Shown here piece by piece: positions 18,129-40,816 of a DNA stretch of 64,000 bases; the first letter of the stretch is position 1, and every line of letters begins with the position of its first letter. Position numbers and translations under genes: made by a program. This DNA is from an uncultured Planctomycetota bacterium (GTDB taxonomy: Bacteria > Planctomycetota > Planctomycetia > Gemmatales > Gemmataceae): NCBI GenBank assembly GCA_963849325.1, contig CAWKHF010000001.1:512001-576000 (forward strand), written 5' to 3'. The notes beneath the pieces are model-generated. The model saw only the letters and a list, made by a program, of their open reading frames with translations. It was not told the DNA's origin and did no database searches.

Positions 18129-18157
18129 CTATCGTCCCGAAGAAGGGCAAACCTTGA
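18129..18157 (-). promoter_or_regulatory. Sigma28-like promoter (long spacer) for fliOPQR-flhBA-fliA
   Basis: TCAAG-N16-GACGATAG. Confidence 0.6.
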
Positions 18158-18220
18158 GGAGCTTTCCGAATGGGAGGGGAATAACGAATATGCCGTCAAG
18201 CGGTGAGCGGCCCGCTTCGA

Positions 18221-19002
18221 TCATTGCTTGCTGCCGTCCACGTTGGCCGGCGTCCGCCGCAGTCCCTTCAGCTTCTCGACCAGCTGGGCCGCCAGGCCGG
18301 CGTCGGTCAACTCGGCCAGCACCTTCGCCGCTTGCCTCTCCTGCATCAGTCCGAGCACCTTGACCGCCGTGTCCATCTTGCCCGTGTCCGCCAGGTTCTG
18401 CAAAATCTTGGCCGCGCTCTCCGGCGCCATCGAATTGTACATGCCGCTCATCTTCTTCAAATTGTCGTGCTCTTCCTTCTGGAGTTGCAAGACCCGTCCT
18501 TCCATCTCCTGCGTATTTCGGCTGATTTTCTGGCGTTCCTCATCGAGATTGCTGCGCTGCTTCTCGACGCCCTGGATGGCCTCGTTCAACGCTTCCAACT
18601 CGCTCTTGACCTGCGTGCGCAGCTCGTCGAGGGCGGAGCGTTCGCCGCGGATGTCTTCCTGGATCAGCTCGATTTGCTTCTTGCGCGGCCAACTGTTCCT
18701 CGCGCTCGCGCACGGCGGCGAGACGGGTACGCAGCTCGCTGGTCATGCGGGCGATTTCCTCGGTGCCGGCGTTGTAGGTGGGACGAACGGCGGCGCGCGG
18801 GGCGGCGTCGCTTGCGCCGGACTCGTGGGCCGGCTCGGCGGCGGCGCTCGGCTTGCCGCTGTCGTGGGCCTTGACCTCGATTTTCTCCGTCTTCTCCGGA
18901 GCGTGGCCGTCGGTTCGGCTTCTGTTGCCAGAAATACGACACCGACGCCGACACCGCGAACAGGACCAGGCTCGTCGCGCCGACGATCAGCAATTGCTTC
19001 AT
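18221..19002 (-). CDS. FlbB/MotE/YlxF-like protein (TM, coiled coil, MgtE-N-like domain; indel-split)
   Basis: MYNSMAPESAAKIL..AVKVLGLMQERQAAKVLAEL. Canonical position after fliJ. Confidence 0.8.
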
Positions 19003-19490
19003 GGCTCGCCTCCTTCCGGGGCGTCGGGACTGCCGAACGGTCCCGCGTCCTGTGCCGCCAGCCAGCGCTGCAAGCCCAGCTCATCCAGATTGTTTTGCTG
19101 CTGCCGGGCCGCTTCTCGACGATAGTTTTGCCATTCGCGCGCGCGGAGGGCGCGCAGCGCCTCGGCCTCCAGGGAAGCCTGTATACGCAGACGGTCGGCT
19201 TCCTGCAACAGCTTCTCGGCCTCGTCGGCCTGTCGCCGAGCCGCGTTCAGCCGTTCGCCCAGGGCCATCGTCTGCTCGTAAGGGATCTGCCAGGTCCCCA
19301 GGGCCGCCGCCTCGCGCAGCCGCGCCGCTGCGGACGCGGCCGTGCGGGTCATCTGCTCCTCGATCCGCGCGCACTCGGCTCGCGCTTCCTCCCACCGCGC
19401 CCGCGCCTGCTGTTGCCGTACCTCGGCCAACCGCTCGCGCTGTTCCTTCAGCGCCAACACACGCTCCAGGCGGAAATGAAATCGCTTCAT
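18999..19490 (-). CDS. fliJ: Flagellar export chaperone FliJ
   Basis: MKRFHFRLERVL N-terminus, coiled coil, QNNLDE. Follows fliI. Confidence 0.9.
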   Translation of the reverse strand: MKRFHFRLERVLALKEQRERLAEVRQQQARARWEEARAECARIEEQMTRTAASAAARLREAAALGTWQIPYEQTMALGERLNAARRQADEAEKLLQEADRLRIQASLEAEALRALRAREWQNYRREAARQQQNNLDELGLQRWLAAQDAGPFGSPDAPEGGEP

Positions 19491-19505
19491 CGATAAACCA
19501 CCGCA

Positions 19506-20825
19506 TCAAAACGGCCATGCCGCCGCGATCTTCTCCATCCGCTCGCGTGTCTCGGCCAGGGTGTTGCGCTCGCCGACGCCTTGACGCAAGAACGCCAGCA
19601 CCGACGGCATCAGCTCGATGGCGCGATCGACCTGCGGGCTGCTGCCGCGCGCGTAGGCGCCGATGCGGATGAGGTCTTCCGCCTCGGCATGGATGGCCAG
19701 GATCTCGCGCACCTTGCGGGCCGCCTGCTGATGGTCGGCGTCCGTCACTTCGCGCGCCACGCGGCTGATGCTCCGCGCGATGTTGATGGCCGGGTAGTGG
19801 CCGCGCTCGGCCAACCGGCGGTCCAGGACGATGTGGCCGTCGAGCAGGCCGCGCGTCGCGTCGGCGATCGGCTCGTCGAGGTCGTCGCCATCGACCAGTA
19901 CGGTCAGGATGCCGGTGATGCTGCCGGAGGCGGCGTTGCCGAGTTGCTCGACCGTGTTGGCCAGCACCTGGAACACCGACGGCGTGTAGCCGCGCGCGCT
20001 GGGCGGCTCGCCCAGCGCCAGGCCAAGTTCGCGCTGGGCCATCGCCAGGCGCGTCAGGCTGTCGAGCAGAAACAGCACGTTGGCAGCCGCGAGCGCGGAA
20101 GTGGTCGGCCATGGTGATCGCCACCTGCGCCGCGCGGCGCGCAGCAGCGGCGCCTGGTCGCAGGTGGCCACCACGACCACCGACCGCGCCAACCCCTCCG
20201 GCCCGAGGCAGTCCTCCAGGAACGAGCGCACCTCGCGGCCACGCTCGCCGATGAGGGCGAGGACGTTGACGTCGGCGCGCGAACCCTTGGCGATCTCGCC
20301 CAGCAGCGTGCTCTTGCCGACGCCGCTGCCGGCGAAGATGCCGAGACGCTGGCCCTGGCCGCACGTCAGCAGGGCGTCGATGGCGCGCTGCCCGGTGACG
20401 AACGGTCGGCGGATGCGCGCTCGCTCCAGCGGCGGCGGCGTGCCGCGCCGCACCGGCAACAGGTCGCAGCCGCTCAGCGGGCCACGACCGTCGAGCGGCC
20501 GGCCCAGCCCGTCCACGATGCGGCCCAGCAGCCCGTCGCCCACCGGCGCGATCAGACCACGGCCCAGGTGCGTCACGCGCATGCCCGAGTGGACCTCCTC
20601 GGCATGTTCGTAAGGGACGACGTAGGCCACGCCACTCTGAAAGCCGATCGCCTCGGCCAGCAGCGATCCGCCGTCGCCGGTGTCGATGGCGCACTGATCG
20701 CCGACCGCCGCCGGCAGGCTGCACGACAACAGCAGCCCGGTGGCGCTGCGGAGCACGCCGCTGGTGCGAAACAGATCGTGCCGGACGATGTCACGGCGCA
20801 GACGAGCCAGGTCCAGATCGAGCAT
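19506..20825 (-). CDS. fliI: Flagellar export ATPase FliI
   Basis: GQRLGIFAGSGVGKS, LIGERGREV, DSLTRLAMAQRE and LDGHIVL. Confidence 0.96.
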   Translation of the reverse strand: MLDLDLARLRRDIVRHDLFRTSGVLRSATGLLLSCSLPAAVGDQCAIDTGDGGSLLAEAIGFQSGVAYVVPYEHAEEVHSGMRVTHLGRGLIAPVGDGLLGRIVDGLGRPLDGRGPLSGCDLLPVRRGTPPPLERARIRRPFVTGQRAIDALLTCGQGQRLGIFAGSGVGKSTLLGEIAKGSRADVNVLALIGERGREVRSFLEDCLGPEGLARSVVVVATCDQAPLLRAARRRWRSPWPTTSALAAANVLFLLDSLTRLAMAQRELGLALGEPPSARGYTPSVFQVLANTVEQLGNAASGSITGILTVLVDGDDLDEPIADATRGLLDGHIVLDRRLAERGHYPAINIARSISRVAREVTDADHQQAARKVREILAIHAEAEDLIRIGAYARGSSPQVDRAIELMPSVLAFLRQGVGERNTLAETRERMEKIAAAWPF

Positions 20826-21407
20826 GACCGGCGCTCCAGAGAAGATGCTGGCGCAGCTCGGCCAGCTGGTTGGCCAGGTCGGCGAGGACGTGGATCTCTC
20901 CCGCCTCGGCTCGGCAGCCGCCGCGTTTCAGCGTCGCGTCGGCCTCGATGCGCAGCGCCGGCTCCCGCGCCGGCAACAGCGGCTGATCCGCGAGTCGGCG
21001 CCGCAACAGGGCCAGGTCTTCGGGGTGCAAGTACACCGTCATCGCCGGCGCCGCCGGCAGACGCGCCACGGCTTGCCGCACCATCTCCTCGATGGGGAAG
21101 TCGCCGGCTTGTAGTTTGTCGAAGACGAGCCGACCGGCGACCGCCACCGCCAGCTCGACCGCTGCTTGCCGCATCTCGGCGAGCAAGGAGTCGTGCCGCG
21201 TCGCCAGACGCTCCGCCGCGCCACGCAACTCCGCCAGCACCTGCTCGATCCTTTGTCGTTCCTCTGCGCCTCCCGCTCGGGGTCCGGTTGGACCCGCGGC
21301 GCCGGAACCGCGACGGCAGGCACCGGCGGCAGAGGGAGCTGACGGCCGGCGCGGACGACATGGCGCAGGCGCGGCGGCGAGCGAAAGGTGATCTCGAACA
21401 CGCGCAT
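20791..21407 (-). CDS. fliH: FliH (indel-split)
   Basis: VELAVAVA..TVYLHPEDL..ADATLKRGGCR. Lies between fliG and fliI. Confidence 0.85.
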
Positions 21408-21445
21408 GCCGGACCTCCATCCGCCGCTGCCGGGCTAGTGGGAAA

Positions 21446-22443
21446 TCACTCGTCCATCATCAACTCGCCCGCCTGATCGAGACGTTGGATCACGTCCACC
21501 AGCGCCTTCTGCGCCTGCCGCACCTGGGCGAGGGGCACCATGCCCAAAAACGCCATTTCCTCGGTCAGCGTCTCGCGCGCCCGCTTGGACAGGTTGTTCA
21601 GCACCTTCTCGCTGATGGCCTCGGTGGCGCCCTTGAGGGCCACGCCGAGCGTCTTGGAATCGATCTCGGACAGCAGTTTTTGCATCGAGCGATCGTGGAT
21701 GCGCAGCAGATCCTCGAACTGATACAGCAGTTCCTTGACGTGCCGGGCCATGTCCGGCTCGTTCTCCTCCAGGGCGGCGAGCACTTCCATGCGCTCGGTC
21801 TTTTCCAGGCAGCGCAGCATGGCGGCCATCTTCTCGTACTTGGCGTCGGCGCGGGTGTCGCCGCGATTGCCGGCGAGCGTTCGGCTCTTTTGCACCAAGG
21901 CGCGAGCGATGCGTTCGAGCAGGTCCGGGGGCGTGGCACCGAGCCGGCTGAGACGCACCGAAACGTCGCGGCGCATGTCCGGCTTGAGCTGGCGGAGGAC
22001 ATCGCCGGCCTTCTCCGCCGACAGGCAGTTGAGCACCAGCGAGACGGTGTGCGCCTGCTCGCCCTGTAATACCGCGGCCAGCATGTCGGGCGAGAAGCCC
22101 GTCAGCGCCCGCACGGGATCGGCGGGCAACGGCCCCATCTCCGGGACCGGAATTTCCGCGTCGGACGGCGGACGGTAGGCGGCAAGTTGTCGCGGCGTCG
22201 GCGCACCTCCGGGGGACGCGGGATCGACGTCCGGTTGCCGCAGCATCTCCTCGAATTCGCGGACCACGTCGCCCAGGTCGTCGGGCTTTTCGCTCTGCCG
22301 GCGCAGCTTGTCCAACTCCGGCCGCAGGCGGGCGCCGCGCGCCGGCCCAGCTCGGCCAGCACTTTCTCCGCCGTCTCCGCCGGCAGACTGTGCAGCAGAA
22401 GGGCGGCTTTCTCGATCCCCGTTCGCGTGGCCATGCCCGTCAT
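21446..22443 (-). CDS. fliG: Rotor protein FliG (one indel)
   Basis: GIEKAALLL, YQFEDL, LGVALKG and the torque helix NLSKRARETLTEE. Confidence 0.93.
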
Positions 22444-22453
22444 CCATCCTCGA

Positions 22454-23991
22454 TTATGCCGCCGCCTGTGCGGCCGGCTGCTCCGTCGCCGTCTCCGCCT
22501 GGTCGATCCAGCTGGGCCAGCGCCTTGGCCAATCGCTCGGGTTCCTTCCTGCGCCAGCTCGGCCAGCACATCGCCCTCCGGCCGCTCCTCGCCGGCTGGA
22601 GACGGGGCCGGCGCCTTCGGTCGCAGACGCCGGTAGTAGAGCACGCCGATCAGCAGCCCCACCAGCGACCGCCACGCCCAGCGAGCGTTGCGGGCCAGCG
22701 ACAAGTACCAGCGCCATGCGCTGCGCCTGCTGATACTCCGCCTCGACGCCCTCCAGCGTCGCTCCGCTGGCCAGCTTGACGTCGTTGACCTTGATCTCAT
22801 CGCGGCCCTTCTTGAAGCCGACCGCCTGCTTGATGATCTCCTCCGCCTCCGTCACCGTCAGGCCCGGCCCGGCGGCGCCGTCCGGCCGCGATAGGTCGAG
22901 CAGGGCCGCCACCGTCAGCCGTTCGACGTTGCCGCGCCCCTCCTCCATCTCCTGCTCGATCTTCGTCGCCCGCCATTCCGAATCGGTGTTTTCTTCGTTG
23001 TCGTTGCTGTGGTGCGTCGCTGCCGTGGACGCCGCTGCTCCGCCTTGCCCGGCAGGTTGCTGACCGCGCCGGCCGTGCCTCGGTTGGCCGGCGTGCCCGT
23101 GGTGGACTTGCGATTGGTGATCGTCTCCTTGACCAGCACGCGCTGCTCGGGATCGTAGGTCTCGTTGTTCGTCTTCTGGCGCTGGAAGTTGACCTCGGCC
23201 GTCACGCGCACCACGGCCCGGCCGGGACCGAGCACCTGGGACAGCATCTCCTCGGCGCGCGTGGACAGGTAGGTCTCCATCTCGCGGCGATACTCCATCT
23301 GCGTCGTCACCGGCGCCGGCGTGTCGCCGTGCGTCTCGCTGAGGACGCGGCCGCTCGTGTCCACCAGCGTCACGTTCTCCGCCGTCAGTCCCTCGACGCT
23401 GCGCGACACCAGGGCGACGATGCCCTGCGCCGTGCTGCGCGACAGCACGGCGCCGGGCTTGAGCTTGAGGACGACGCTGGCCGTCGCCGGTTTCTGCTCG
23501 CGGACGAACGGCGTCGGCTCCGGCCGCACCAGATGCACGCGCGCCTGCACGACCGGCTCGACCTGCATGATGGTCCGCGCCAGCTCCGCTTGCAGAGCGC
23601 GATCGAGGTTGACGTGCTGCAAGAACGGCGTCATGCCCACGTTCATTTCGTCGAACAGCTCGAAGCCCTTGCCCTTGCTGGGCACGCCCTCCACGGCCAG
23701 GTCGAGACGCAGCTGATGGACGCGCTCGGCCGGCACCAGGATCGTTGTCCCGCCCGCGCCGAGGCGAAACGGCACACCCTGGGCTTGCAGCTTGGCGGTG
23801 ACGGCGCCGGCGTCCTCGGCGCCGAGGCCGGAATACAGCACCTGATAATCGGTCTGGAAGGCGAAGAAGCCGACGGCCAGGACCACCGCCACGCACACGC
23901 CGGCCAGGACCAGCAGGGCGATGCGGCGCGGCCGGCTCATGCCCTGGTAGATGGCGCGCAACTGTTCGAGCAACTGACGAACAAATCGCAT
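22454..23991 (-). CDS. fliF: MS-ring protein FliF (indel-split)
   Basis: LYSGL..DAG, GFELFD, RALQAELARTI, ARVHL, TASVVL and VEGL..NVTLVD. Confidence 0.95.
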
Positions 23992-24019
23992 GGCCGTGGA
24001 CCTGAGTCTAACTCTATTC

Positions 24020-24081
24020 GTTTAGCCGCGACGCGCAGCGGAGCGCGAGACCTCGCGCTCCGCTGCGCGTCGCGGCGAAAC
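24020..24081. repeat. REP/REPIN-like inverted repeat, family B
   Basis: Family B arms between fliE and fliF. Confidence 0.9.
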
Positions 24082-24090
24082 AAGGGATTT

Positions 24091-24399
24091 CTACACCTGC
24101 ATCCGCATGATTTCCTGATAGGCGTCGCTGAGCCGATTGCGGATCTCCAGCACGAGATGGAAGCTCAGGTCCGCCTTGGCCATCGACAGCATCACGTTAT
24201 GCACGTTGTCGGCCTTTCCGGCGGCGAGGTTGTGTACCGCCTGTTCCGCATGGGCCTGCTGCGCGCCGGCATCGCCGAGGAAATTCGTGAGCAAGCGAGC
24301 GAAGCCGCCCGCGCCCGAACCCGGCACCGGCGCGGTCCCGCCACGCATACTTGCGGCCGCGCCGCTCGACGCGGCGGAGGATACGGGAGATAGGTTCAT
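24091..24399 (-). CDS. fliE: FliE
   Basis: VHNVMLSMAKADLSFHLVLEIRNRLSDAYQEIMRMQV. Confidence 0.95.
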   Translation of the reverse strand: MNLSPVSSAASSGAAASMRGGTAPVPGSGAGGFARLLTNFLGDAGAQQAHAEQAVHNLAAGKADNVHNVMLSMAKADLSFHLVLEIRNRLSDAYQEIMRMQV

Positions 24400-24435
24400 G
24401 TCTTCATCCTCGCATGATTAGGTCCAACCACCGGG

Positions 24436-24895
24436 TCATCCGCCCTGGCCGCGCAGCAGGCTGTACGACTGCTCGGTCATCTGGCGGAAGAATTGCATGG
24501 CCCGCAGGTTGGCCTCGTAGGCCCGGCTGGCCGTAATCATGTTCACCATCTCGACGGGCAGATCGACGTTGGGCATGCTCACGTAGCCGTCCTTGTCGGC
24601 GTCGGGATGGCCGGGGTTGATGGACGCGGTGAAAGTCGGACATGTCGTCGGCGATGCCCGTGACCTGCACGCCGCCCACAGGGGCGGCGGCGGCGCCGCG
24701 GCCCGCGCCGCGACGCACGCTCTGGTTGAGCACCGCCGAAAAGACCACATCCTGGCGCCGATACGGCCCGCCGTTGGCCGAGCGCGTCGAAAAGGCGTTG
24801 GCGATGTTGTTGGCCACCACTTCCAGACGCAGCCGCTCGGCGGCCAGGCCCGACGAGCTGATGTCCGCCGCGGCGAACAGAGGGTTTCCGTGCAT
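24436..24895 (-). CDS. flgC: Rod protein FlgC (one indel)
   Basis: [32 protein letters not shown] and [19 protein letters not shown]. Confidence 0.95.
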
Positions 24896-24922
24896 GAAAC
24901 ATCTCCTGCGAGCGCCAGAGGT

Positions 24923-25281
24923 TCAGTGCCCCGTGATGGCGCTGCGCATCATGTTGATGCGGCTGGTCAGCATTTGCGCGGCCATGCTGAAGGCAGCGAA
25001 TTCTTGTTCAGATTGCCCAGCTCTCGATCGAGGTCCACCGTGTTGCCGTCCTGCCGGGCCACGCCGCCCTGGGCCTCGACCACGCGCGGCGCGACCTGCA
25101 ACGCGCCCTTCTCTCCCTGTTTGCCCAAGGCCCGCGCGAAAGCGTCCTCGAAGGACACTTCCCGCTGGTGGTAGCCGGGCGTGTTGACGTTGGCGAGGTT
25201 CTGCGAAATGACGCGATGGCGCAGCTGGGCCACGTCCATCAGGCGGGCCAGCAGGTCGGATTGAGGGATGGTGAGACTCAT
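24923..25281 (-). CDS. flgB: Rod protein FlgB (one indel)
   Basis: [17 protein letters not shown] and [10 protein letters not shown]. Confidence 0.94.
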
Positions 25282-25288
25282 GCCGGTT

Positions 25289-25317
25289 GTATCGGTCGTA
25301 GCCGCCGCCGACCTTGA
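25289..25317 (-). promoter_or_regulatory. Sigma28-like promoter (long spacer) for the flgB operon
   Basis: TCAAG-N16-ACCGATAC, 7 nt before the flgB ATG. Confidence 0.6.
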
Positions 25318-25390
25318 ACCGTTCCGTCGTCGCATCCTCCGCGAGCGACCGGCTGCTCTCGGGCGGAATGAGGCGAGTGCGCGAAAGCCG

Positions 25391-25419
25391 TCAAGTGCGC
25401 GGACGCCCGGCGTCGATAA
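25391..25419 (+). promoter_or_regulatory. Sigma28-like promoter (long spacer) for motA
   Basis: TCAAG-N16-GTCGATAA. Confidence 0.6.
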
Positions 25420-25457
25420 GAAGGCGCTGTGTCCTCGGCTATCGACAAGGAGCGTCC

Positions 25458-26235
25458 ATGGACACCGGAACCATCGCTCGGCGCCTTGCTGGGCTTCGCG
25501 TTCATCGCCACGGCCATCCTCATGCACGGCAAGCTGTCCGACTTCGTGGACGTGCCCGGCGCCCTCGTCGCCTTCGGCGGTTCGTTCTCGGCGCTGTTCA
25601 TTTTCTTCCCCGCCAAGAAAGTGCTCGGCGTCTTCGGCGTGGTCAAGAACTGCGTCCTGCACAAGCTGCCCGACCCGCGCGCCGAGATTCGCCGCCTGAC
25701 CGACCTGGCCACGGTGGCGCGGCGCGACGGCTTGCTGGCCCTGGAAAAACGCTTGCCGGAAGTCACCGACCCCTTCCTCATCCGCGGCCTGGAGATGGTC
25801 ATCGACGGCACGTCGCGGGAGAAGGTCGAAGAGGTGCTGCAAATCGAGTTGCAGTACATCGAGGAGCGGCACGCCGTCGGCAAGAAGATGTTCGACCAGC
25901 TCGGCGCCTCGCTGCCGGCCTTCGGCATGGTCGGCACGCTCATCGGCCTGATCCAGATGCTGCACGAGCTGGACGATCCCAGCAAGATCGGGGCCGGCAT
26001 GGCCGTGGCGATGGTCACGACCTTCTATGGGGCCTTCGTGGCCAACATGATCTTTCTGCCGCTGGCCGGCAAGCTGGAGAACCGCAGCAAGGAGGAAGCC
26101 CTGCTCCGCGAGCTGATGATCCAGGGTCTGGTGGCCCTGATCGAGGGCGAAGCGCCGCGGTCGATGGAAGCCAAGCTCAAGGCCTTCCTGGCGCCCAAGG
26201 CGCGGAAGATCGAGGTCGAGACCGAGGCCGCGTAA
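25458..26235 (+). CDS. motA: Stator protein MotA (indel near the 5' end)
   Basis: ARRDGLLALE, PAFGMVGTLIGLIQML and MAVAMVTTFYG..AN. Confidence 0.95.
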
Positions 26236-26250
26236 CCCAGAGGCGCTACC

Positions 26251-27018
26251 ATGTCCACGCATCCGCACGCCGAAGCGGAGGCCGGATCGCCGCCGGACCA
26301 CCACGAAAAGCACGAGGCCGAGCACGTTGGCGGCCATCACGGCGGACGGGGCCAACACAAAAAAGGCCACGGCGATCACGGCGGCCACGGCGGAGGCGGG
26401 CACGGCGGCAGCTGGATCGTCACCTACAGCGACATGATCACGCTGCTGATGGCCTTCTTCATCTGCATCATCACCTTTGCCTCGAAAGAAACCGAGAAAT
26501 TCGATCCCAAAAAGGACTCGCTCATCGGCAACGCGGGCGGCTCCGGCATCGCCAGCACCGCTTCCAAGGGCACGTTGGAGCAGGACTCGGCCGTGTGGCG
26601 CCTTCGCATCCGCCAGGCGCGAGCCAGCGAATCCGGGGCGGAAATGGCGCCGCTGTACCAGAACCCCTCGCTGCAAACGACCGCCCACATCCTGCAAGCC
26701 CTGGACGAGGCCGAAGCAGGGCGGATGCGCGACGACTTCGCCGTCCGTCTGCCGCGCAGCCTGCTGTTCGAGAAAGACGATCGGCTGTCGTCCTCCGGCG
26801 TGCGTCTGCTGCATGCCTTGGCCGTCAACCTGCGCGATCTGCCCTACGATCTGCAATTCCAGGTCGGCCGCGACGACCACGTCGGGCAAGCGGTCAAGCT
26901 GTGCGGTTTCCTGGCGTCGCAGGAAGGGTATGAGCCGGCCCGGCTGGCCGTCGGCGGCCGGCCGCCGCGGGCCGGCGACGGCGATACCATCTGGCTCGTC
27001 CTGGTCCGGCAATTCTGA
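26251..27018 (+). CDS. motB: MotB-like stator protein 1 (His/Gly-rich N-terminus)
   Basis: WIVTYSDMITLLMAFFI TM with the conserved Asp. Degenerate OmpA-like C-terminus. Confidence 0.85.
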   Translation: MSTHPHAEAEAGSPPDHHEKHEAEHVGGHHGGRGQHKKGHGDHGGHGGGGHGGSWIVTYSDMITLLMAFFICIITFASKETEKFDPKKDSLIGNAGGSGIASTASKGTLEQDSAVWRLRIRQARASESGAEMAPLYQNPSLQTTAHILQALDEAEAGRMRDDFAVRLPRSLLFEKDDRLSSSGVRLLHALAVNLRDLPYDLQFQVGRDDHVGQAVKLCGFLASQEGYEPARLAVGGRPPRAGDGDTIWLVLVRQF

Positions 27019-27029
27019 AGGGCGTCTCC

Positions 27030-27738
27030 ATGAAACGCAAGCGAGCCGGCGGACACATCAACACCGAAGGTTGGATGATGTCCTACGCGGACATGGCCAC
27101 CATCCTGCTGGCCATGTTCATCGTCCTGAGCACGCTGGGCAAGGACCAGACCGGCATCAGCCTGGCCAACGGCACCGGCTCGTTCGTCAACGCCATGAGT
27201 TCCTTCGGCCTGGCCGGCCTGTTCCGCACTTCCGCCCGGCCCATCCCCATGAACAACCCAACGCCCCATTATCTCTATCATCCTCCGCCGACGAGGACAG
27301 CGGCCCGACGCGACCGCCGCCGCGTCATCGACGGCGAGGAGGAGCACCTGCAGCGCTTCTTGCGCGAACTCCAGCGTCAGTTTCCGGTCGAGCGTCCGTC
27401 GCGGCAGGTCGGCCAGGTGATCGATCGACCTGTACGAGCCGCTGCACAAGGAAGCACCCTACCTGGCGCCGCGCCACCTCGACGTACTCGATCAGGTGCG
27501 GCCGCTGCTGGAACGATCGAGCTTTCGCCTGTACCTGGTGGTGTGGACGCCGACGCCGAGTCCGTCGGCATGGACGCGCACCGCCGTCCTGGCTCGCCTG
27601 GTCGCCGCCGAGTTCGCCGCCAACTCGCACCTGCGGCCAGCCGCTGGCGAACGTCTCATCCCGCTCGCCCAGCCCTGGCGCTACCGCGACATCCGCCGGC
27701 CGGTCCTGTCGCTGGTCGTCGTCAAGACGGAGGAATAG
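27030..27738 (+). CDS. MotB-like stator protein 2 (indel-split)
   Basis: WMMSYADMATILLAMFIVLS TM with the conserved Asp. Divergent C-terminus. Confidence 0.8.
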
Positions 27739-27751
27739 CCGCACCTGTTCT

Positions 27752-27818
27752 CGTTTCGCCGCGACGCGCAGCGGAGCGCGGGATGCTCCCGCGCTCCGCT
27801 GCGCGTCGCGGCTAATCG
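27752..27818. repeat. REP/REPIN-like inverted repeat, family B
   Basis: Family B arms. Confidence 0.88.
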
Positions 27819-27935: not shown

Positions 27936-29959
27936 ATGTCGATCCGGATGGCCGCAGCCCTCAAGGACGACGCCGCGATCGCCTCGAACGGGCGCGTGGC
28001 CGACCGCGATTCGCGGGAGGCGCTGCTGGCCCGCATCGCCGACCATCCCCACTTGCCCAGTCCGCCGGGCGTCGTCTTGCAGGTCCTGGAACGGGCCAGC
28101 CGCCTGGACAGCACGCCGGCCGACCTGGCCGCGGTCATTCACCGCGATCCCGCCCTGTGCGGCCAAATCCTCAAGGTCGTCAACTCGGCGCTGTACACCC
28201 TGCCGCGACCGACCACGTCCATCGAGCGGGCGGTGGCCCTGCTCGGCTTCAAGCCGGTTCGTTCGTTGGTGCTCAGCCTATCTCTGCCGGCCATGCAGCG
28301 GCAAACGTCCGGCCCACTGCCGCTGGAGACGTTCTGGAAGGAGTCGGTGGCCGGCGCCATCGTCGCTCACGAGCTGGCCCTGCACCTGGGCCGAACCAAT
28401 CCCGAAGATGATCTGGTGGCCGGTCTGCTGCGCGACCTCGGCACCCTGGCCTTGCAGCAAGTACGCCCCGCCGATTACGCCCGGCTGCTGGCCCATCCGT
28501 TCGAGGAGCGGAGCCTCCGTCCGTGCCAGCTGGAGGAGCAGCTGCTGGGGTTGAATCACGCCGAGGTCAGCGCCTTCCTGCTGCGCCGCTGGCGGCTGCC
28601 GGAGGACATCATCGAATCCGTCCGCTACCACCATGCTCCCGAGCAGGCGGCCGGACTGCCGCGGCCGGTGGTCGAGCGTGCTCGGCTGCTGGCCTTCGCC
28701 AGCCGGGTGGCCCTGCTGCAACTGGCCGCCGCCGGCGCCGAGTTGCTGCGCGAAATTCTCGCTCAGGCTCGGGAAGATTACGGCATGGACGAGGCCGCCT
28801 TGACGGCCTTCCTCGAACCGCTGGCCGAGAAAATCCAGGAGTTCGCCGCCGTCATGGACATCGACATCGGCGCCTGCGATCATTATCCCCGCGTCCTCGC
28901 TCGCGCCGCCGAGGAGCTGGTCAAGCTGACCGTCGAAACCAGCGTGGACAAGCTGCGCATCCTCGAACAGAAGCGACAGGCCGAAGAACAGACGCAACAC
29001 TGGCGCGAACAGGCCGATCGCCTGCGTCACGAGGTGGTGCGCGACAGCCTGACCGATGCCTTCAACCGCGGCTGCTTCGAGGAAGAACTAACGCTGGCCT
29101 TCCGGCGGGCCCGGCGGCGCGGCACCGTCCTGGGCCTGGTCTTTCTCGACCTCGACGACTTCAAGAGCATCAACGACCGCTTCGGCCATCCCTTCGGTGA
29201 TCGTGTCCTCAAGCGAGACGGCCGACAATCTGTTCGCCGCCGTGCGCCACGGCGACATCGTGGCCCGCTACGGCGGCGACGAATTTTGCGTCCTGGTGCA
29301 AAACACCTCGCCGGATGGACTGCGGGCCATGACCGAGCGGCTGTGGCAGGATCTCAACGCACCGGACCATCCGCGGCGACGGCCACACCGTCTCCGTCCG
29401 TGCCTCGATCGGCGCCGGCCGTGTGCTTGCCGCGCACCTACCCGCACTCGGCGGCGGAGTTCCTGGCCAGCCGTGGACCAGGCCATGTACGCCGCCAAGA
29501 CCACGGGAAAAAATCAGGTCGCGCTTCATCTCGCTGCTCGGATGAGGCGGACCTTTGCTTTCTCGGCGCGGTGCGAGCGCCGGCTGTTCAGCGTCTGGCT
29601 GGCCGAGCGCGGCGTCGGGCAAGCCGCAGGACGTGGGCATCGGCGTGCGCCGCGCCGGTTCGTGCTTCGAGGGACTGGGCCGACTGGCCCGCCGTCTCGG
29701 CTGGTTGACGACGGCCCAGCTGCGCGATCTGCTGCGCGAACGGCGGGCGACGCGGCGACGCTTCGGCGACGTCGCCCTCGCCCGAGGGTCCTTGACCGCC
29801 GAGCACCTGCACGTCTTGTTGGCCTTGCAGCTGGAGCCGCCCGAGGAGATCGCCGCGAACCTGGTCAATCAAGGGATCGCGGGAGAACCGGCGATGCGGG
29901 ACAATCTGCGCAAGTATTATCAATGGTTGCGGACTACACTCGACCAGCCGCAAGCGTAA
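27936..29959 (+). CDS. HDOD-GGDEF diguanylate cyclase with C-terminal MshEN-like repeats (indel-split)
   Basis: HDOD: DPAL..ILKVVNS, AGLLRDLG, WRLP..RYHH. GGDEF: DSLT, DLDDFKSINDRFGH, RHGD I-site, RYGGDEF. Confidence 0.9.
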
Positions 29960-30028: not shown

Positions 30029-30051
30029 TCCCCGCAAATTCCGAGTAATCC

Positions 30052-30080
30052 TCAAGGCCCGCCGGCCCACGAGCCGATGT
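30052..30080 (+). promoter_or_regulatory. Sigma28-like promoter (long spacer) for fliLMN
   Basis: TCAAG-N16-GCCGATGT. Confidence 0.58.
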
Positions 30081-31494: not shown

Positions 31495-31503
31495 GGGGAC
31501 ACA

Positions 31504-31911: not shown

Positions 31912-31940
31912 TCGTACGTCCCATCGTCCCCGCCAAGTTG

Positions 31941-31999
31941 GTTTAGCCGCGACGCGCAGCGGAGCGCGACCTGCGCTCCGCTGCGCGTCGCGGCTAAAC
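31941..31999. repeat. REP/REPIN-like inverted repeat, family B
   Basis: Family B arms between the convergent fliN and flgE. Confidence 0.9.
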
Positions 32000-32016
32000 G
32001 GAGAACTTGCCGCGGC

Positions 32017-33688: not shown

Positions 33689-33729
33689 CGATGCTATCTC
33701 CTGTTGCGATTCCTTGACTCGTCGTACTC

Positions 33730-33793
33730 CCGAGCGGGGGGCGTCAGCCCCCTGAATGTTCGCGGACTCAGGAGGCTGACGCCCCCCGCTCGG
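33730..33793. repeat. REP-like inverted repeat, family G
   Basis: CCGAGCGGGGGGCGTCAGCCCCCTGA...TCAGGAGGCTGACGCCCCCCGCTCGG. Confidence 0.85.
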
Positions 33794-33802
33794 CGTTTGT
33801 TC

Positions 33803-34223
33803 TTAGCTGGCCCCCTGGACGATGCCGGTGACCTGGGCGACCGGCACCTGCTGGTTGCCGACCTGGACTTGCAGCTGTCCATTCTGCACGCTGACCCCCT
33901 GCACGACGCCCTGGCTGTTCGGGCTGGAACCCGATTGCGTGAACGTCACCGTCTTGCCCATCAGGGCGGCCCCCTGAGCGAGTTGCTGCAACTGGAGCAT
34001 CTGCTGCACGGTGGTATTGAGCTGCTCGATGCCGCTCATGGTGGACATCTGGGCCAGCTGCGAGGTGAAGTCCGTGGCGCTGACCGGGTTGAGGGGGTCT
34101 TGCGCCTTCAGCTGCGCCGTGAGCAGTTGCAAAAATTGCTGCTGGTTGAGCATCGCTGGCGAGGACGTTCCACTCGCGGACGACGACGATGAGGTTGCGT
34201 TCGATACGCCGGAGATCGGCCAT
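33803..34223 (-). CDS. flgD: Hook cap protein FlgD (indel near the 5' end)
   Basis: FLQLLTAQLKAQDPLNP..FTSQLAQ and LMGKTV. Confidence 0.93.
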
Positions 34224-34257
34224 AACTCTTCTCCTGTCTCGTTGCCGACATCCCGGC

Positions 34258-35697
34258 TCAGGCCAGGACGTTGATTCCATTCGTGGGGGCGAGCGCGGCG
34301 CCGCTACGGCGGCGGCGGGGCGCACCGGCGGAGAGACCGGGGCGACGGTCTGGGTCGGCGCTGGGGCGGCGGTTGCTGTCCGCCACGGGAGCCACTGCCG
34401 CCGCTGCTCACGTCGAAGCCGGTCAGCGACACGCCGGCTTGCGCCAGGGACTGGCGCAGGTGGTGAGCCTGGTCTTGCAGCAGTTGCCGCGTCCCATCCT
34501 GGGCGGTCACGATGCGGGCCGAGATCGTGTGGTCGGTGGCGCGAAGGTGGATCTGCACCGTGCCCAGCTGCGGCGGCTCCAGGCGCAGGTGGAAAACGGT
34601 CTGTCCGTCGCGGTGGACCACGTCGGCCTGGGCGACGAACGCTCGCGTCAGCTGGTCGGCAACCGGAGCGGCCGGCTGGTTGTCGGCAGGTCCGGGCGAC
34701 GGGGGGGCCGACGGGGCGGCGATCCCGACGGCAGCCACGGCCGGCGGCGGAGGCGTGGAGACGGTCGCGTCGGACGTTTGCGGGGGTCCGTCGTGTCGTT
34801 CGGGAGTGGACACCGAGGCCGCGACGGCCGGCGCGGCCTTCTCGACCTGGCCGGTCGTCGCCATCCCGATCGTCTGCCGCAGCACGGTCGAGGGAAGGCT
34901 TTCCGCGACAGTCGATGACAATGGGATGTCACTGATTGCCTCGGAGGTCGCAGCGGGGTGAACCGCCGTCGTTTCGTGAGTGCTTGCACTCGGGCGCTCG
35001 CGGCGACGGCAGACTCGCCCGGAGCGATGGTCCCGAACGCCGCCGCGACACCGGAGCCCTCCGGCGTTCCTTGCGGATTCGGGCCACGGACGCCAAGCAG
35101 AGACGGAGCGGAACTGTTGGTTCCCGGCTCTTCGTGCTCCGCCGCCGACACCGATGTCGGGGTCGTTTCCGGAGACCCCACGGGTCGGGCGACGGGAAGG
35201 CTTGGGGACGCCGTTGCCGCCCTGGCCGCCTGCGCTCGCGCGGCCATCGCCCCGGAGGGTGCCGGGGAGGACGGCCGGATGGAAGCCGCCGCCGGGGCCG
35301 CCGCTGTCGATGCGGAGGGTGCCACCCGCTTCACCGCCACGGCCGTGGCCACGGCCAGGGCCGAAGCGGCCGGTGGCGCGGCGACGGCGATCGTCGAACC
35401 GGAAGCCGACCCGCTCGGCGTATCCTTGCCGATTTTCGGCGTCCCCTTCTTGGCGCGGAGGCGGGAACGATGGTGGACGCCGCCGGTGGGATGATCGCGT
35501 GCGAGGCGCTGACAGCGGCCAGGCAGGCCGCGAAGGCATTCGCGGGGTTCGTCGGGTCCGTGGCGGTCTTGTCCGCGTCCGGCGGCTTGACCGGCGCCGT
35601 GCTTGCCGGCGCCGGTTGAGGCGGAGGAATGAGCGAGACCGATCGCCGTGCCGACGATGCTGACGAGCTTGCTGGGCACGAAGGCAATGGCGGGCAT
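34258..35697 (-). CDS. fliK: Hook-length control protein FliK (indel-split)
   Basis: Long A/P/T/S-rich region, LRLEPPQLGTVQI..LRQSLAQAGV and C-terminal GINVLA. Upstream of flgD. Confidence 0.88.
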
Positions 35698-35789
35698 GGC
35701 GACCGAGTCCGTGGTGCGGTGCGGAGAGCAATCCCGATGCATCCTACCACACGCCGCTTCGCGGCGCGGCCGGTCGTGGCGACAGCGCT

Positions 35790-36164
35790 TCACGATTTCC
35801 TCAGGTAAGCGCGTTGCATTTGGCGCCGACGGTTGCAGGCGTCAAGTTCGGCCGCCAGGACGTCGCGGCGAGCGCGAGCCGACTCCTCGATGGTCCGCAG
35901 GTGGCCGGCCAACTGTCGAATGAGGTCGGCGGCGCGGGCCATGACGCCGCGCAAGGCGACGCCGGCGCGGCGGCCCTCCTGCTCCCAACGACGCTTCTCC
36001 GATGCGATGCCGGCCTCCGAAGCGGCAACCTCGTCGAGCAGCTCCAGCACCCGGCGCAAGCGGTCGTCGGGGTGCTCGCCCCGGCCGCACGCCTCGGCCA
36101 ACTCGGCGGCCAGCGGCACGGCCCGCGCGTAACAGTCCGCCTGCCGCACGAAGGCCGCGTGCAA
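35790..36164 (-). CDS. FlgN/FliT-like helical chaperone (true start uncertain, possibly 36259 or 36223)
   Basis: All-helical ~125 aa ending in QMQRAY. Flagellar context. Confidence 0.55.
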   Translation of the reverse strand: MHAAFVRQADCYARAVPLAAELAEACGRGEHPDDRLRRVLELLDEVAASEAGIASEKRRWEQEGRRAGVALRGVMARAADLIRQLAGHLRTIEESARARRDVLAAELDACNRRRQMQRAYLRKS

Positions 36165-36174
36165 GACAACTTCC

Positions 36175-36250
36175 AGTTCTGAGTTCTGAGTTCTGAGTTC
36201 TGAGTTCTGAGTTGGGTCTTCACTCAGAACTCGGAACTCAGAACTCAGGA
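36175..36250. repeat. Inverted heptamer tandem repeat (AGTTCTG)5 / (CAGAACT)n
   Basis: Five perfect AGTTCTG units at 36175-36209, then about four degenerate inverted units. Confidence 0.9.
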
Positions 36251-36255
36251 TTCGC

Positions 36256-37265
36256 TCATGGCTTCCTCGGAGTCACGGCCTGGCGTCGCGGCCGCAGCTC
36301 GTCCAGCTGCCCTTCCAGCTCGCGCCGCTCTTTCATCGCCCGTAGATACCAACGGGCGTTCTCGACCAGAACGTCGTTGCCGTCGGAGTTGGCCACTTCG
36401 CGGTACAGCATCGACGCCTCGTCCGTCTTGCCCAGCTTGCGCAGACAGCAAGCCATCATGTACTGGATGGTGACCCGAGCGTCCGTCCGCTGCTCGTCCT
36501 GCTGGAGCTGACGATACTGCTGCAGGGCGGCGGCGTGATCGCCCGCCAGGAAGAGCGACTGGGCCAACGACAGCGGATCGACCGGGGCGGTTGTCAATAA
36601 CTTGGCCGAAGCGTCCGCCTGTTTCGCGGGCGGCCCGGATGGCAGAGGTTGCGCCGAATGGGCCGACGAGGCCGACGACGGTGATGGCGCGACAGAGGTG
36701 GTTGGCGGTTTGACGGCCGTTTGCGGATTGGGCGGGGTTTTCTTGTCCTCGTTCGGTTTCGCGGATGGCGCCGGTGCCAGCCCTTTGTTGTTCATGCGGA
36801 CGGCCTTGCCCACCAGCTCGGTGATGCGGCGGCGCAGCCGGGCGGCATCGTCGCCGCCGGCGCGAGACTCCCGAACGGTGAGCAAAGACATCTCCTCGTT
36901 GAGCATCGCCTCGCGCTCCATGCGCAGACCCTCGATCTCGCGGTGTAGACCCTGGATTTCGGCCGGAGGAGCGGTGCGGAGGTAGCCCGGTAGGGCCAGG
37001 CGCGGCGGGGCCGGCGTCTGCTCGTGCGGCATGGGCGCGGCCTCCTCGCCGGGCGACGACGGCGGCATCGGGACGCCGCCTGCCGGACCAGGCAGCTCCC
37101 GAGGAGCGGGCGCCGGCTCTTCGCGCGGCGTCGATGCGGGCACCGGCCGCGGCGCGGGCAAGGCATCCTCGCCGGGCGCAGCGCCGGCGGCGCCCCGGGC
37201 GGCGGCTCCGCCGCCAGCAGACCGACACCCACGAGTACGACCAGACATCTCGCCGACCTGTGCAT
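36256..37265 (-). CDS. Exported Pro-rich coiled-coil TPR protein (indel near the 5' end)
   Basis: Signal-like CLVVLVGVGLLAA. C-terminal TPR LAQSLFLAGD..ALQQY..YMMACCLRKLGK. Confidence 0.75.
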
Positions 37266-37388
37266 GGTTGTTCGATCCCGCTTGACGGCGGAGGGAGGAC
37301 CGGCTTCAATTGGGCCGCCACGGTTGGCGTGGCTGGAAGTCCCTCACCCCTCGCCTTGGTTGGGGGCTGTCGAAATAACAGGTTCTTC

Positions 37389-37446
37389 GTTTAGCCGCGA
37401 CGCGGAGCGCGTCTGTCTCGCGCTCCGCTGCGCGTCGCGGCTAAAC
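37389..37446. repeat. REP/REPIN-like inverted repeat, family B
   Basis: Family B arms. The left arm has a 5-bp deletion. Confidence 0.85.
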
Positions 37447-37468
37447 TTACCCGGATGTCCCCCCAGTC

Positions 37469-37885
37469 ATGGAAAACCGACGCCAGACCTATCGCCACTC
37501 CTTCGTCCCCGCGGAAGCTCTGCGCGTGGAACTCTACCGGCCGGGAACGCAGGACAAGATCGACTGCGATTTGCTGGACCTCTCTCTCGGCGGCATGCGG
37601 GTGCGGCTGCGGAACGCGGTCCAGCGCCTCCGCGCCGGCGACTCGGTCATCACCCATCTGCTCGGCCGCGAGGCGCCGTCGCCGGTGGAGCTGAGCCTGT
37701 CCCTGCCTTCCTGCGTCGCCCACGTGGACCGGCACCGCGATGGCATCATCTACGGCGTCCAATTTCTGCCCAGCGCCAACCCCGGCGCCAACGAGAAGGT
37801 CGAGAAGACGCTGGCGCGTTTTCTCATCGCGGAGCAACGGCGGTTGCGACGGCAGGCGCAAGCCACGGATGACGCGGAGGCGTAA
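37469..37885 (+). CDS. PilZ-domain protein
   Basis: RRQTYR (RxxxR), DLSLGG (DxSxxG) and YGVQF. Confidence 0.9.
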   Translation: MENRRQTYRHSFVPAEALRVELYRPGTQDKIDCDLLDLSLGGMRVRLRNAVQRLRAGDSVITHLLGREAPSPVELSLSLPSCVAHVDRHRDGIIYGVQFLPSANPGANEKVEKTLARFLIAEQRRLRRQAQATDDAEA

Positions 37886-37889
37886 CGCT

Positions 37890-38011
37890 CTCGTTCCCAA
37901 GCTCTGCTTGGGAACGTACGGTTGCGAAGCTCTGCTTCGCGGACTGTCCCTGACCGAGCGGGAAGCAGAGCTTCCCAGACCTGCGTTCCCAAAGCAGAGC
38001 TTGGGAACGAG
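37890..38011. repeat. Four-hairpin inverted repeat element, family E
   Basis: CTCGTTCCCAAGCTCTGCTTGGGAACG and GCGAAGCTCTGCTTCGC, followed by their inverted counterparts. Confidence 0.88.
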
Positions 38012-38027
38012 GATTCTCCGAGACCCA

Positions 38028-40188
38028 TCACGGCGGCAATTCGCCGGATAGACAGCGGATGGCCTTGTCGCGCTCGCCGATCTGTTCGTAGGCGCCGGCC
38101 ATGAGACGCAGCACGGCCGGCACGTCCACGCCGCTGGACTGCTGTAACAATTCTCGACAGCACTTCAGACAATCTTGCGGTTTTTTTTCGCGCAGGGCGA
38201 TCTCGGCCAGGCGCAACCGGGCGCGTGTCGCCTCCGTCCGACGGCCCGGCGGCGATCAGCTTGCGGTACAGCGCGACGGCATCGTCGCGGCGGTCGGCCG
38301 CCGTGTACGCCTCGGCCAGGGACATCGACACCTCCGCCGCTAGCGGGCCGCCCATCCGGGGCAGGGCCTTCTCGTATAGCCGCACCATCTCCTCGTGCAT
38401 GCCCATCTCTTGATACGCCTGGCCGCGGAGCACCAGTCCCGCGGGGCCGAGAATGGGATCGTCGCGCACGGCCAGAAGGGCGGCCAGCAGGTCGGCCGCC
38501 TCGCGCTGACGACGGCGGCGGTCGGTGGTGACGGCACGGAAGCGGGCCAGGGTATCCAGGAAGGCGGCGGCGTTGCGGTAACGGTCCTGGCCGACCAGTT
38601 CGCGGTGTTCCAGCAGGACGGCGTTGGCGGCGCGCGGGTTGTCGGTCAGCAGGTGAGCGGCGGCCATGGTGATCGCCGCCGCCGCGTGGGCCGGCGAACC
38701 GGGACCGCTGCCCAGTCCACGCCGCAATGGCGACAACGCCTGTTCGGGATCGCCTTCCTCCAGATAGATGCGGCCGACGCGCCAGTAGGCCAACGGCGCC
38801 AGCTCGTGGGCCGGCGCCCGATCGACGACCCGGTAGAACGCCTGGCGCGCCCCGGCCGATCGCCCTGACGGCCGCGCAGCAGGCCGAGATTGTAATGGGC
38901 CTCGATGGCCAGCGGCGAACGCGGCCATTCGCGGACCAGTCGGCCGTACCAGGTGATGGCCTCGTCGAGCCGGCCGTCCAGCGCCTCCAGGTCGCCCAGT
39001 TCGAGATAGGCCGCCGGCGTCAGCGGATGGCGCGAGTAGGTCAGCACCGCCTCGCGCAGCGCCCGCCGAGCGTTGCTGGCCCGCAGCGTCTTGAGTTCCT
39101 CCGCCGACGTTTCCTCCTCGCTGGCAAACGTCAGCCGATCGCCGCGAATGTGCCACACCAGCCCCAACGATTCGGCCAGGACGCGCAGGGCGTCCGGCAG
39201 CGACGTGCGCTCCAGGGCGACTACCACGCTGCGCCCCTCCACCTGCTGGCGGGCGCGGGGCGTCCATTCGATGCGCAAACGGGCCTGCTCGGCCAGGCGA
39301 TCAAGCAGGCCGGTGACGGCCATTTGATGCACGCAAACGCGGACCAGGGCGACGGCGCCTGGCTGGACCTCGATGACCTCCTCGCCCTCCGCCGCCTCGA
39401 CCTCCGGCTCGCGGCCTGGTCCCCCCCAGTCCACGGCGCGCTCCAGGCACCAGTCGGAGGTGAAGGGGCTGACCGGGTCGTCGCGGAACGGTCCCGGCGG
39501 CTCGTTGGGCAAGATCTCCAGCGGGCCGGCCAGGGCGAGCAGGTAACGAGCGTCGGCCAGGAACGGTTGACCGCGCAGGTTCGGCGCGGCGGAGCGGCGG
39601 ATCAAATCGCACAACAGCGCCTTGGCCTCGGCCGGTCGGCGCAGTGCGCAGCCACACCCGCGCCTGTCCCAGAAGGGCGATGGCGGCGGTTCGCGCCGAC
39701 GGCGTGCGGCCGGCCAGCTTCCGGTAGGCCGTCAGCGCCTCGTCCCAGTGGCCGATTCCCTCCAGCGACAGACCGAGACGATACTGAAAGGCGTCGCGCA
39801 GCTCGGCGGCGGCGCGGTCGCTGAAGGAGCGACACAGGACCAGGGCCAGCTCGAATCGAGACACGCGGAGGAGACGGTCCACCTCGTCCAACTCGGCCTG
39901 GGCGGCGCGGCCCTCCGCCGGCGCCGGAGCCGCCGGCGGCTGAAGAACGGCGGCTTGCGGATGCTCGGCTGACACCGACGGCTCGGGCGTCTCGGGCAAG
40001 ACCAGGCGCGAGCCGAGACGGAACGTGCCGGCGACCAGGCCCAGCTGAAACAGACACACCAACGGCCAGCCGAACGAGCGCAGCCAGCCGCGTACCCCGC
40101 GCCGGAGCGGCCGGGGCGGATCGGGCGCATCGTCGGCCGTCGGGGCGTTGCCACGGCCAACCTCATCGGGGGCCTTCCCGGGCCGCAT
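38028..40188 (-). CDS. Membrane-anchored multi-TPR protein with STN/secretin-N0-like domain (indel-split)
   Basis: N-terminal TM and TPRs (YRLGLSLE.GHWDEAL, AYLELGDLE, AHYNLG, AYWRVGRIY). Middle region LLDRLAEQARLRIEW..SLPDALRVLAESLGLVW. Confidence 0.75.
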
Positions 40189-40234
40189 GATCGATTCAAC
40201 CCTTCAAACCGTTAGACTCTGCCTCTTCCACCCT

Positions 40235-40262
40235 TTATCGGCACACGGAAAATCACTCTTGA
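40235..40262 (-). promoter_or_regulatory. Sigma28-like promoter for the TPR gene
   Basis: TCAAG-N15-GCCGATAA with a perfect -10. Confidence 0.65.
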
Positions 40263-40275
40263 GGTTGAAAGGGAA

Positions 40276-40302
40276 GCAACTTTCCGCCGGGCCGTTCGAT
40301 AA
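40276..40302 (+). promoter_or_regulatory. Sigma28 promoter (canonical spacing) for flgM
   Basis: GCAACTTT-N11-TTCGATAA versus the consensus TAAAGTTT-N11-GCCGATAA. Confidence 0.6.
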
Positions 40303-40348
40303 GGAGAGAGAGGGAATGGAGTTTCCTCGCACGACGAAGGAGTTCCAG

Positions 40349-40654
40349 ATGCGGATTACCAACTCGACGAACCAGACCGCGGGCAGTCCGGCCGACGGCG
40401 CGACGCCGCCAACCCCGCGTACCGACGCGGCCACGTCGGCCCTCGCGGGCACCCATCTGTCGTCGTCGTCCGTCTCCGCACCGGCCTCTAGCCTGGCGCC
40501 GTCCTTCGATCTGCTCCGCCTGAATACTCTCTTGCAGCAGATCCCGCCGGCCCGTCCCGACGCGATCGCCGAAATCCTCCAGCGGCTCACTTCCGGTCAG
40601 CTGAACACGCCGGACGCCCTCGATTCGACTGCTCGCGCCATGCTGGGAATTTGA
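40349..40654 (+). CDS. flgM: Anti-sigma28 factor FlgM-like
   Basis: MRI start, low-complexity N-terminus and P.R.D.IAEILQRLTSGQL..ARAML. Upstream of fliC. Confidence 0.75.
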   Translation: MRITNSTNQTAGSPADGATPPTPRTDAATSALAGTHLSSSSVSAPASSLAPSFDLLRLNTLLQQIPPARPDAIAEILQRLTSGQLNTPDALDSTARAMLGI

Positions 40655-40789
40655 TCACCAAGCCTGAAGCGTCCTGGCCTCTGCGTCCGCGCCTTTCCGT
40701 CCCCTCCTCCCGATTTTTCCGAATGCGCCTATCGCAGCGATCGCGCCCAAGGCGCCGGCGCGGGAAAAATCGTCCCCCTGCCTTTTCGG

Positions 40790-40816
40790 GCAAGTTCGCG
40801 GAGTAAAGATCGATAA
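40790..40816 (+). promoter_or_regulatory. Sigma28 promoter (canonical spacing) for fliC
   Basis: GCAAGTTC-N11-ATCGATAA. Confidence 0.65.

Follow-up and report, generated by a model that had tools for sequence, protein, structure and literature searches.

Enteric bacteria export the anti-sigma factor FlgM after completion of the hook, Vibrio uses two sigma28 factors, LafS and FliA, to serve two separate flagella, and sporulation in Bacillus proceeds through sigma cascades built from other sigma subfamilies. In Pseudomonas aeruginosa sigma28, residue Q228 reads promoter positions -36/-35 and R97 reads the GC at -15/-14 (PMC12784957), and control of early flagellar genes by sigma28 is known in Actinoplanes (PMC13083903). 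Here we describe the flagellar gene cluster in a stretch of 64,000 nucleotides (the window) from an uncultured planctomycete of the family Gemmataceae (assembly GCA_963849325.1, contig CAWKHF010000001.1, positions 512,001 to 576,000). Early and late flagellar genes in the window are preceded by two classes of sigma28-type promoter-like site, and the genome that holds it (G000) encodes two FliA-family sigma factors, one in the cluster and one standing alone (the orphan sigma). It is fairly probable, judging from the sequences compared below, that the two sigma factors and the two motifs act as a serial relay, expressing first the early and then the late flagellar genes.

The seven bipartite sites that a preliminary description of the window had placed before flagellar transcription units are confirmed in position and strand (Table 1), and sigma28-type sites do stand before both early and late units. 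Gaps are counted here between the 5-mer and CGAT; the N14, N15 and N16 of that description are thus gaps of 16, 17 and 18. Contrary to that description, the sites do not share a single motif: the pattern is GCAAnTT...TCGATAA at the N14 sites and TCAAG...R[AC]CGAT at those with N15 or N16. In a curated set of 53 orthologous flagellar sites, partly chosen by class-specific patterns, the long class (31 sites) reads (C)T(C/A)AAG...R(A/C)CGAT, the sites in G000 being (C)TCAAG-N15/16-R[AC]CGAT, and the short class (22 sites) reads RRGCAAnTTT...(T)TCGATAA, with RRGCAAnTTT, N14 and TTCGATAA as its strict form. The first base of the -35 element is T in all 31 long sites and G in all 22 short sites; G occurs two positions before CGAT in 21/31 long sites but in 0/22 short ones; and the base directly before CGAT is T in 4/31 long and 20/22 short sites. 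The classes are also set apart by the T-run. Gaps 17 and 18 are interchangeable at orthologous sites of the long class and therefore define one class, distinguished by its sequence, and short-type sites at gap 17 exist in G199, G167 and G223. Spacer length as the code for the hierarchy, which had been proposed, is thus not supported. The longer spacer itself was correctly described, with gap 18 at fliO, flgB, motA and fliL in the window, but N16 is not fixed: flgB has N15 in all three same-genus relatives that cover this gene.

Because G000 (8.16 Mb) is 85% complete and frameshift-rich, conservation was assessed in relatives, with 41 genomes as the main comparison set (labels of the form G### denote individual genomes, and f1, f2 and f4 denote families). 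The sites are kept across the orthologous clusters of related genomes. The fliO site has gap 18 in 7/7 same-genus genomes and gap 17 in G038 and G034 of a sister family, the fliL site has gap 18 in 4/4 same-genus genomes covering fliL, and the motA site has gap 18 in two genomes; the short site has gap 16 before fliC in 10 genomes and before the flgM-like gene in nine. Chance, or assembly error in an indel-rich genome, is a very improbable source of the spacer differences and has already been largely refuted. Many window genes are frameshifted relative to G009, so that any single spacer could be off by one, and the difference at flgB between the window genome and its relatives would fit such a source, but the gaps recur across seven (fliO), four (fliL), seven (TPR gene) and 10 (fliC) genomes.

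TCAAG-N16-RNCGAT occurs five times in the window against 0.30 copies expected, and five copies were reached in 0/100 shuffles. Nor is the motif equally common upstream of random genes, since it precedes 4 of 10 cluster units but only 13 of the 6354 gene starts predicted elsewhere in the genome; for at least four of 10 units, P is ~5e-8 with 13 gap lengths allowed for and the pattern chosen post hoc. The long class shows the elements of a sigma28 promoter, namely a -35 of T(C/A)AAG, a -10 of CGAT and fixed spacing, upstream of the gene and in the sense direction, and the short class has the sigma28 -10 and spacing with a different -35. Both motifs are predicted to be active promoters. The register of the -10 element is supported at flgB, because its ATG (25281) lies 13 nucleotides after the C of CGAT and coincides with the predicted +1 in Pseudomonas numbering, a leaderless geometry; the ATG stands exactly at the predicted +1 in 6/7 genomes having the site, and no genome-wide excess of leaderless geometry was found. 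A sigma54 -24/-12 motif was found in 0/17 flagellar upstream regions of four genomes (16 activator-domain matches exist in G000), and no sigma70-like site was found in the window between 10500 and 25600.

A second FliA-like sigma factor, one of the options raised in the preliminary description, is present: a count of FliA/WhiG paralogues gives two FliA-family sigmas in G000, and the stand-alone one (G000:C7:11387-12163) is the likely reader of the long sites. It is a canonical FliA/WhiG protein of 258 amino acids with 39% identity to the cluster sigma, and it scores 258.1 bits against TIGR02479, above the cut-off of 189.6. The cluster sigma scores 182.3 bits, slightly below that cut-off, with TIGR02479 as its top family among 93 and FliA and WhiG as its closest PDB matches. 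The orphan type was found in 40/41 genomes, whether or not they are flagellated; the cluster type was found in 13/41. Across the phylum a FliA/WhiG family member is present in 113/121 sampled genomes; the cluster type occurs in 21/81 genomes of the class, behind flhA in 17/20 checked, and is also encoded by cultured strains, among them Zavarzinella formosa DSM 19928, Gemmata algarum JC673 and Limnoglobus roseus PX52. Three cluster-type sigmas (G168:C7:38053, G195:C106:64264 and G230:C56:19980) have neither an adjacent flhA nor a flagellin match in the genome.

The residues that read the promoter were placed by alignment to P. aeruginosa FliA and from the open-complex paper (PMC12784957). Cluster sigmas carry R at Q228 and Q at R97 in 12/12, 20/20 and 68/68 parsed members of overlapping sets (the 68 are the parsed members out of 80, the 12 unparsed being left out), and orphan-type sigmas retain Q228 and R97 in 40/40. 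The motifs differ at the same positions, with pyrimidine-TCAAG against purine-purine-GCAA at the -35 and G(A/C) against (T)T before CGAT, so that the residue changes appear to be linked to the motif changes. For the -35 this argument rests on the Pseudomonas structure, because the E. coli structure paper reports weak -35 contacts (10.1101/2020.01.02.893370). By their sequences the cluster sigmas are a divergent subfamily of FliA/WhiG, and they fall on one side of a branch in a quick, unrooted tree with long branches and 15 unparsed rows left out, from which no conclusion on origin or sequence of events was drawn. The cluster sigma very probably reads the short motif, and the orphan sigma probably reads the long one.

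A single sigma factor, the cluster FliA, might instead read both classes, with spacer, supercoiling or an activator tuning the order and with autoregulation through the fliO promoter. CAA and CGAT are indeed common to both classes, and a short-type site lies ahead of fliJ in three genomes (G007:C4:371424, G008:C64:38188 and G004:C22:1760), upstream of and co-directional with fliO to fliA, where it could exert positive feedback on the cluster sigma. This explanation is nevertheless improbable, given that genomes lacking the cluster sigma and flhA still have long sites, that the two classes share gap 17 but not their sequence, and that neither of the residues reading the long-type bases is present in the cluster sigma.

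Across genomes, the type of motif follows the type of sigma factor. The strict short motif has two matches in the 8.16 Mb of G000, at fliC and flgM, and of its 24 matches in the 41 genomes, 17 belong to the 13 genomes that have the cluster sigma; 15 of these are at fliC, flgM or fliJ. For an out-of-sample test, matrices made from curated sites only were applied to the 750 nucleotides upstream of 46 flagellin loci in 41 other genomes (46 of 48 flagellin matches, leaving out G000 and one FlgL-like match of 304 amino acids). Where the cluster sigma is present, 15/17 loci have a short site, one has a weak long site and one has neither; where it was not found, 0/29 have a short site, 17 have a long site and 12 have neither. 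The antisense control gave three long and one short site among the 46 loci. Within family f4 alone, a short site was found at 7/9 loci with the cluster sigma and at 0/7 without it. In the 99% complete genome G023, flhA and fliC are present, but no sigma gene follows flhA, nothing matches flgM and fliC has no short site; this genome has thus lost or lacks cluster sigma, FlgM-like gene and short site together.

Long sites have a wider distribution. G000 contains 16 strict long sites at gap 18 and 15 at gap 17, of which 10 each are intergenic and mostly before non-flagellar genes; the top targets include a secretin, a polysaccharide-export protein, an FHA protein and several apparent lipoproteins, and by our own reading of the match one is an outer-membrane-efflux-like protein. 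A matrix scan of upstream regions found 16 sites at gap 17 and 13 at gap 18, compared with 1-10 at other gaps; the list of non-flagellar targets is noisy, because the scan also gives 10 antisense sites at gap 18. Spacer controls were restricted to gaps of the same phase, because codon-phase noise dominates raw histograms of spacer length across the genome. The 17 same-family genomes that have no cluster sigma contain 179 long sites at gap 18, compared with 108 and 102 at the same-phase control gaps, and the number is higher in 14/17. Before the G000 orthologue, 4/36 comparable long sites recur against 0/36 for control gaps (13 of 73 matches left out), and three G000 long sites recur before orthologues in non-flagellated genomes.

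A different reader for the long motif, such as the RpoD-like group-2/3 protein G000:C12:183467-184303 or an extracytoplasmic function (ECF) sigma, with the orphan engaged elsewhere, is also improbable, if slightly less so than a single sigma reading both classes. There are 71 sigma region-4 matches in G000 to choose from, and G006 has long sites with no orphan found. Against this, long sites of gap 17 fit the WhiG consensus XT(C/A)AX-N16-GCCGA (PMC13595943), the orphan retains Q228 and R97, and flagellin has the long motif where the cluster sigma was not found, which is the classical role of FliA. In 25 genomes of the same order or close to it, no long site was found upstream of the orphan gene, and there is therefore no sign of orphan autoregulation.

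According to the proposed relay, the orphan sigma would transcribe flgB-fliJ, motAB, fliLMN, the TPR gene and fliO-flhA-fliA, and the second, cluster-encoded fliA would thus be made as the last gene of an early operon. This presumes that fliO to fliA form one transcript from the long-type fliO promoter, as is predicted. The cluster sigma would then make FlgM and be held by it until FlgM is exported, probably after hook completion by analogy with enteric bacteria, and export would allow fliC-fliD-fliS to be expressed from the short-type site. One sigma28 would in this way switch on the next and replace the master regulators of model bacteria. Autoregulation of fliA through the fliO promoter, suggested earlier, loses its support, because the fliO site is of the long type and its predicted reader is the orphan. 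The orphan sigma may in addition have a wider regulon of envelope genes and be retained when flagella are lost.

Support for the flgM label is weak in family scans and better by a profile search. In family scans the open reading frame at 40349 gives TIGR03824 at E 0.034 and weak PF04316 matches in 2/9 orthologues, below the curated cut-offs, but a profile of the nine orthologues has P. aeruginosa FlgM (9wsf_B) as its top PDB match, with E 0.0015. By this profile match a FlgM-family anti-sigma stands beside the late genes, and orthologues of the gene follow every flgM-type short site. In seven genomes the long site of the TPR gene stands back to back with the short site of flgM, at a distance of 14-15 nucleotides, and polymerases at the two sites could exclude each other.

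The strongest competitor to the relay, although unlikely, is that each sigma factor reads its own motif but the two work side by side or with an additional activator; expression from the orphan would then be basal or tied to the cell cycle, and the activator would set the timing. An activator is known to work on FliA-type promoters in Actinoplanes (TcrA; PMC13083903). Upstream of the flgF-to-flgL operon (G000:C2:773538-781802, minus strand), eight same-genus genomes have a conserved TTCCGATAAC and a T(A/G)TTCGCC box replacing TCAAG. This combination of a sigma28-type -10 and another conserved box is possibly an activator-dependent third type; in the sister family the operon has long-type sites. 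Likewise, 4/8 flgB genes of f4 have CGATA exactly 13 nucleotides before the ATG and no TCAAG. In this genus, however, the sole conserved site found before fliO to fliA is of the long type, and the cluster fliA should therefore depend on the reader of the long sites; terminator matches in the fliO-to-fliA region are at chance level (10 against 7.5), one of them just before fliA.

Besides the third type of box at flgF-flgL, several observations weigh against the serial relay. Long sites at early genes, flgB included, were seen only within this order: at flgB, among 30 of 38 flgB matches (eight left out), the TCAAG box is present in 5/5 of f1 and, at threshold, in 0/8 of f4 with the cluster sigma and 0/17 without it. 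No long site was found in the fliL-to-fliA region of four f4 genomes, nor before fliP in G177. The fliC gene of G023 also has no long site, and neither do most of its early genes. The excess of long sites is weak in family f2 (77 against 57 and 60), and in the 91% complete G006, where the orphan sigma was not found, there are 13 gap-18 sites against 9 and 4. Of the 25 genomes that have no cluster sigma, 8 have no listed orphan sigma at a threshold chosen for the cluster type, and G168, G195 and G230 have the cluster sigma but no flagellin match. Finally, the compared genomes are kin, and the contrasts therefore amount to a handful of independent events.

The features of the window are collected in Table 1, and its gene names are upheld by Pfam. 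The additional long-type match listed there has no counterpart at the same place in relatives. Relative to G009, frameshifts between 12354 and 45696 affect flhA, flhB, fliR, fliQ, fliF, flgC, flgE, fliM, fliD, the TPR gene and the HDOD-GGDEF gene, and are probably assembly errors. The HDOD-GGDEF gene (27936-29708, plus strand) lies between motB and fliL, is kept in relatives and is a possible cyclic di-GMP input to motility. Two MotB-plug genes follow motA in tandem (26251-27815, plus strand), a gene with a weak FlbB-collar-like match lies ahead of fliO, and repeated intergenic palindromic elements of ~40 nucleotides occur near 11280, 27760 and 37300-37440.

Table 1. Promoter-like sites and genes of the flagellar cluster, in window positions
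Feature	Position	Strand	Remark
Cluster fliA, 235 amino acids, divergent FliA-family sigma directly behind flhA	11613..12320	-	R at Q228, Q at R97
fliO-P-Q-R-flhB-flhA-fliA run	11613..18058	-	carries several frameshifts that are probably assembly errors
Long-type promoter-like site, gap 18, before fliO	18129..18157	-	kept in relatives
Long-type site, gap 18, before flgB	25289..25317	-	kept in relatives
Long-type site, gap 18, before motA	25391..25419	+	also in G009; none in G007
Additional long-type match, gap 18	29869..29895	+	183 nucleotides upstream of the fliL site; missing from the preliminary description
Long-type site, gap 18, before fliL-fliM-fliN	30052..30078	+	kept in relatives
Long-type site, gap 17, before TPR gene	40235..40262	-	in 7 genomes
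Short-type site (GCAACTTT, gap 16, TTCGATAA) before FlgM-like gene	40276..40302	+	
FlgM-like anti-sigma candidate, 101 amino acids	40349..40654	+	profile of 9 orthologues
Short-type site (GCAAGTT, gap 16, ATCGATAA) before fliC	40790..40816	+	
fliC-fliD-fliS, late genes	40891..46162	+	Pfam

In planctomycetes the flagellum is built only in the released daughter cell, which is stated as an assumption in PMC11958385, and no account of how this is done was found in the literature searched. The relay offers a concrete, testable circuit for its construction, and in the long motif a sigma factor present in 113/121 sampled genomes of the phylum gains its first candidate promoter motif. The cluster sigma would also present a natural case of a sigma28 paralogue in which the change of specificity maps onto two structurally defined residues, and with two strict sites in 8 Mb it would make a near-orthogonal sigma-promoter pair, useful in a phylum with few genetic tools. 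More broadly, the evidence leaves evenly balanced the proposal that Gemmataceae-related planctomycetes have a sigma28-to-sigma28 cascade with orthogonal promoter codes, in which a phylum-wide core sigma28, driving flagellin where it is alone, becomes master of a swarmer-cell or envelope programme once a rewritten sigma28-FlgM pair rides in the flagellar cluster, with two residues accounting for much of the switch.

No paper on planctomycete FliA promoters or on a serial hierarchy of two sigma28 factors was found in a search that left subscription papers and supplements largely outside. Control of early genes by sigma28 is already known, and a serial sigma28 pair with separate motifs would be an apparent new variant of the flagellar hierarchy. 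The cluster shares with the FliA-FlgM system of enteric bacteria and Pseudomonas (P. aeruginosa sigma28, PDB 9wsm/9wsf; PMC12784957) the place of fliA behind flhA, a FlgM-like gene and the N14 geometry at fliC and flgM. It differs in its short -35 element (RRGCAAnTTT instead of TCTAAAG), in the loss of the GC of the extended -10, in the replacement of Q228 and R97 in the cluster sigma, and in early genes that carry a second sigma28-type motif rather than sigma54 or sigma70 sites. As in Actinoplanes missouriensis, where FliA1, FliA2 and FliA3 are several paralogues and all flagellar units are under FliA-family promoters (PMC13083903), sigma28-type sites extend to early genes; the Actinoplanes targets resemble a common FliA consensus (PMC13595943), whereas the paralogues here seem to have separate early and late motifs. 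The actinobacterial WhiG factors likewise form a cluster-linked clade (WhiG1) and a stand-alone clade (WhiG2), the latter kept without flagella as the orphan sigma is, and the WhiG consensus and spacing are those of the long motif at gap 17 (PMC13595943). RsiG (PF22802) gave no match in the 85% complete G000, and the control genomes also gave none. WhiG1 and WhiG2 keep their DNA-reading residues and recognise similar promoters, according to the same paper, whereas the cluster clade here has changed both residues. With the dual system of Vibrio and the cascades of Bacillus, the proposed arrangement shares two related sigma factors having different regulons and a sigma-to-sigma relay; G000 differs from Vibrio and its two flagella, because at the thresholds used it has a single match each for flagellin and flgB.

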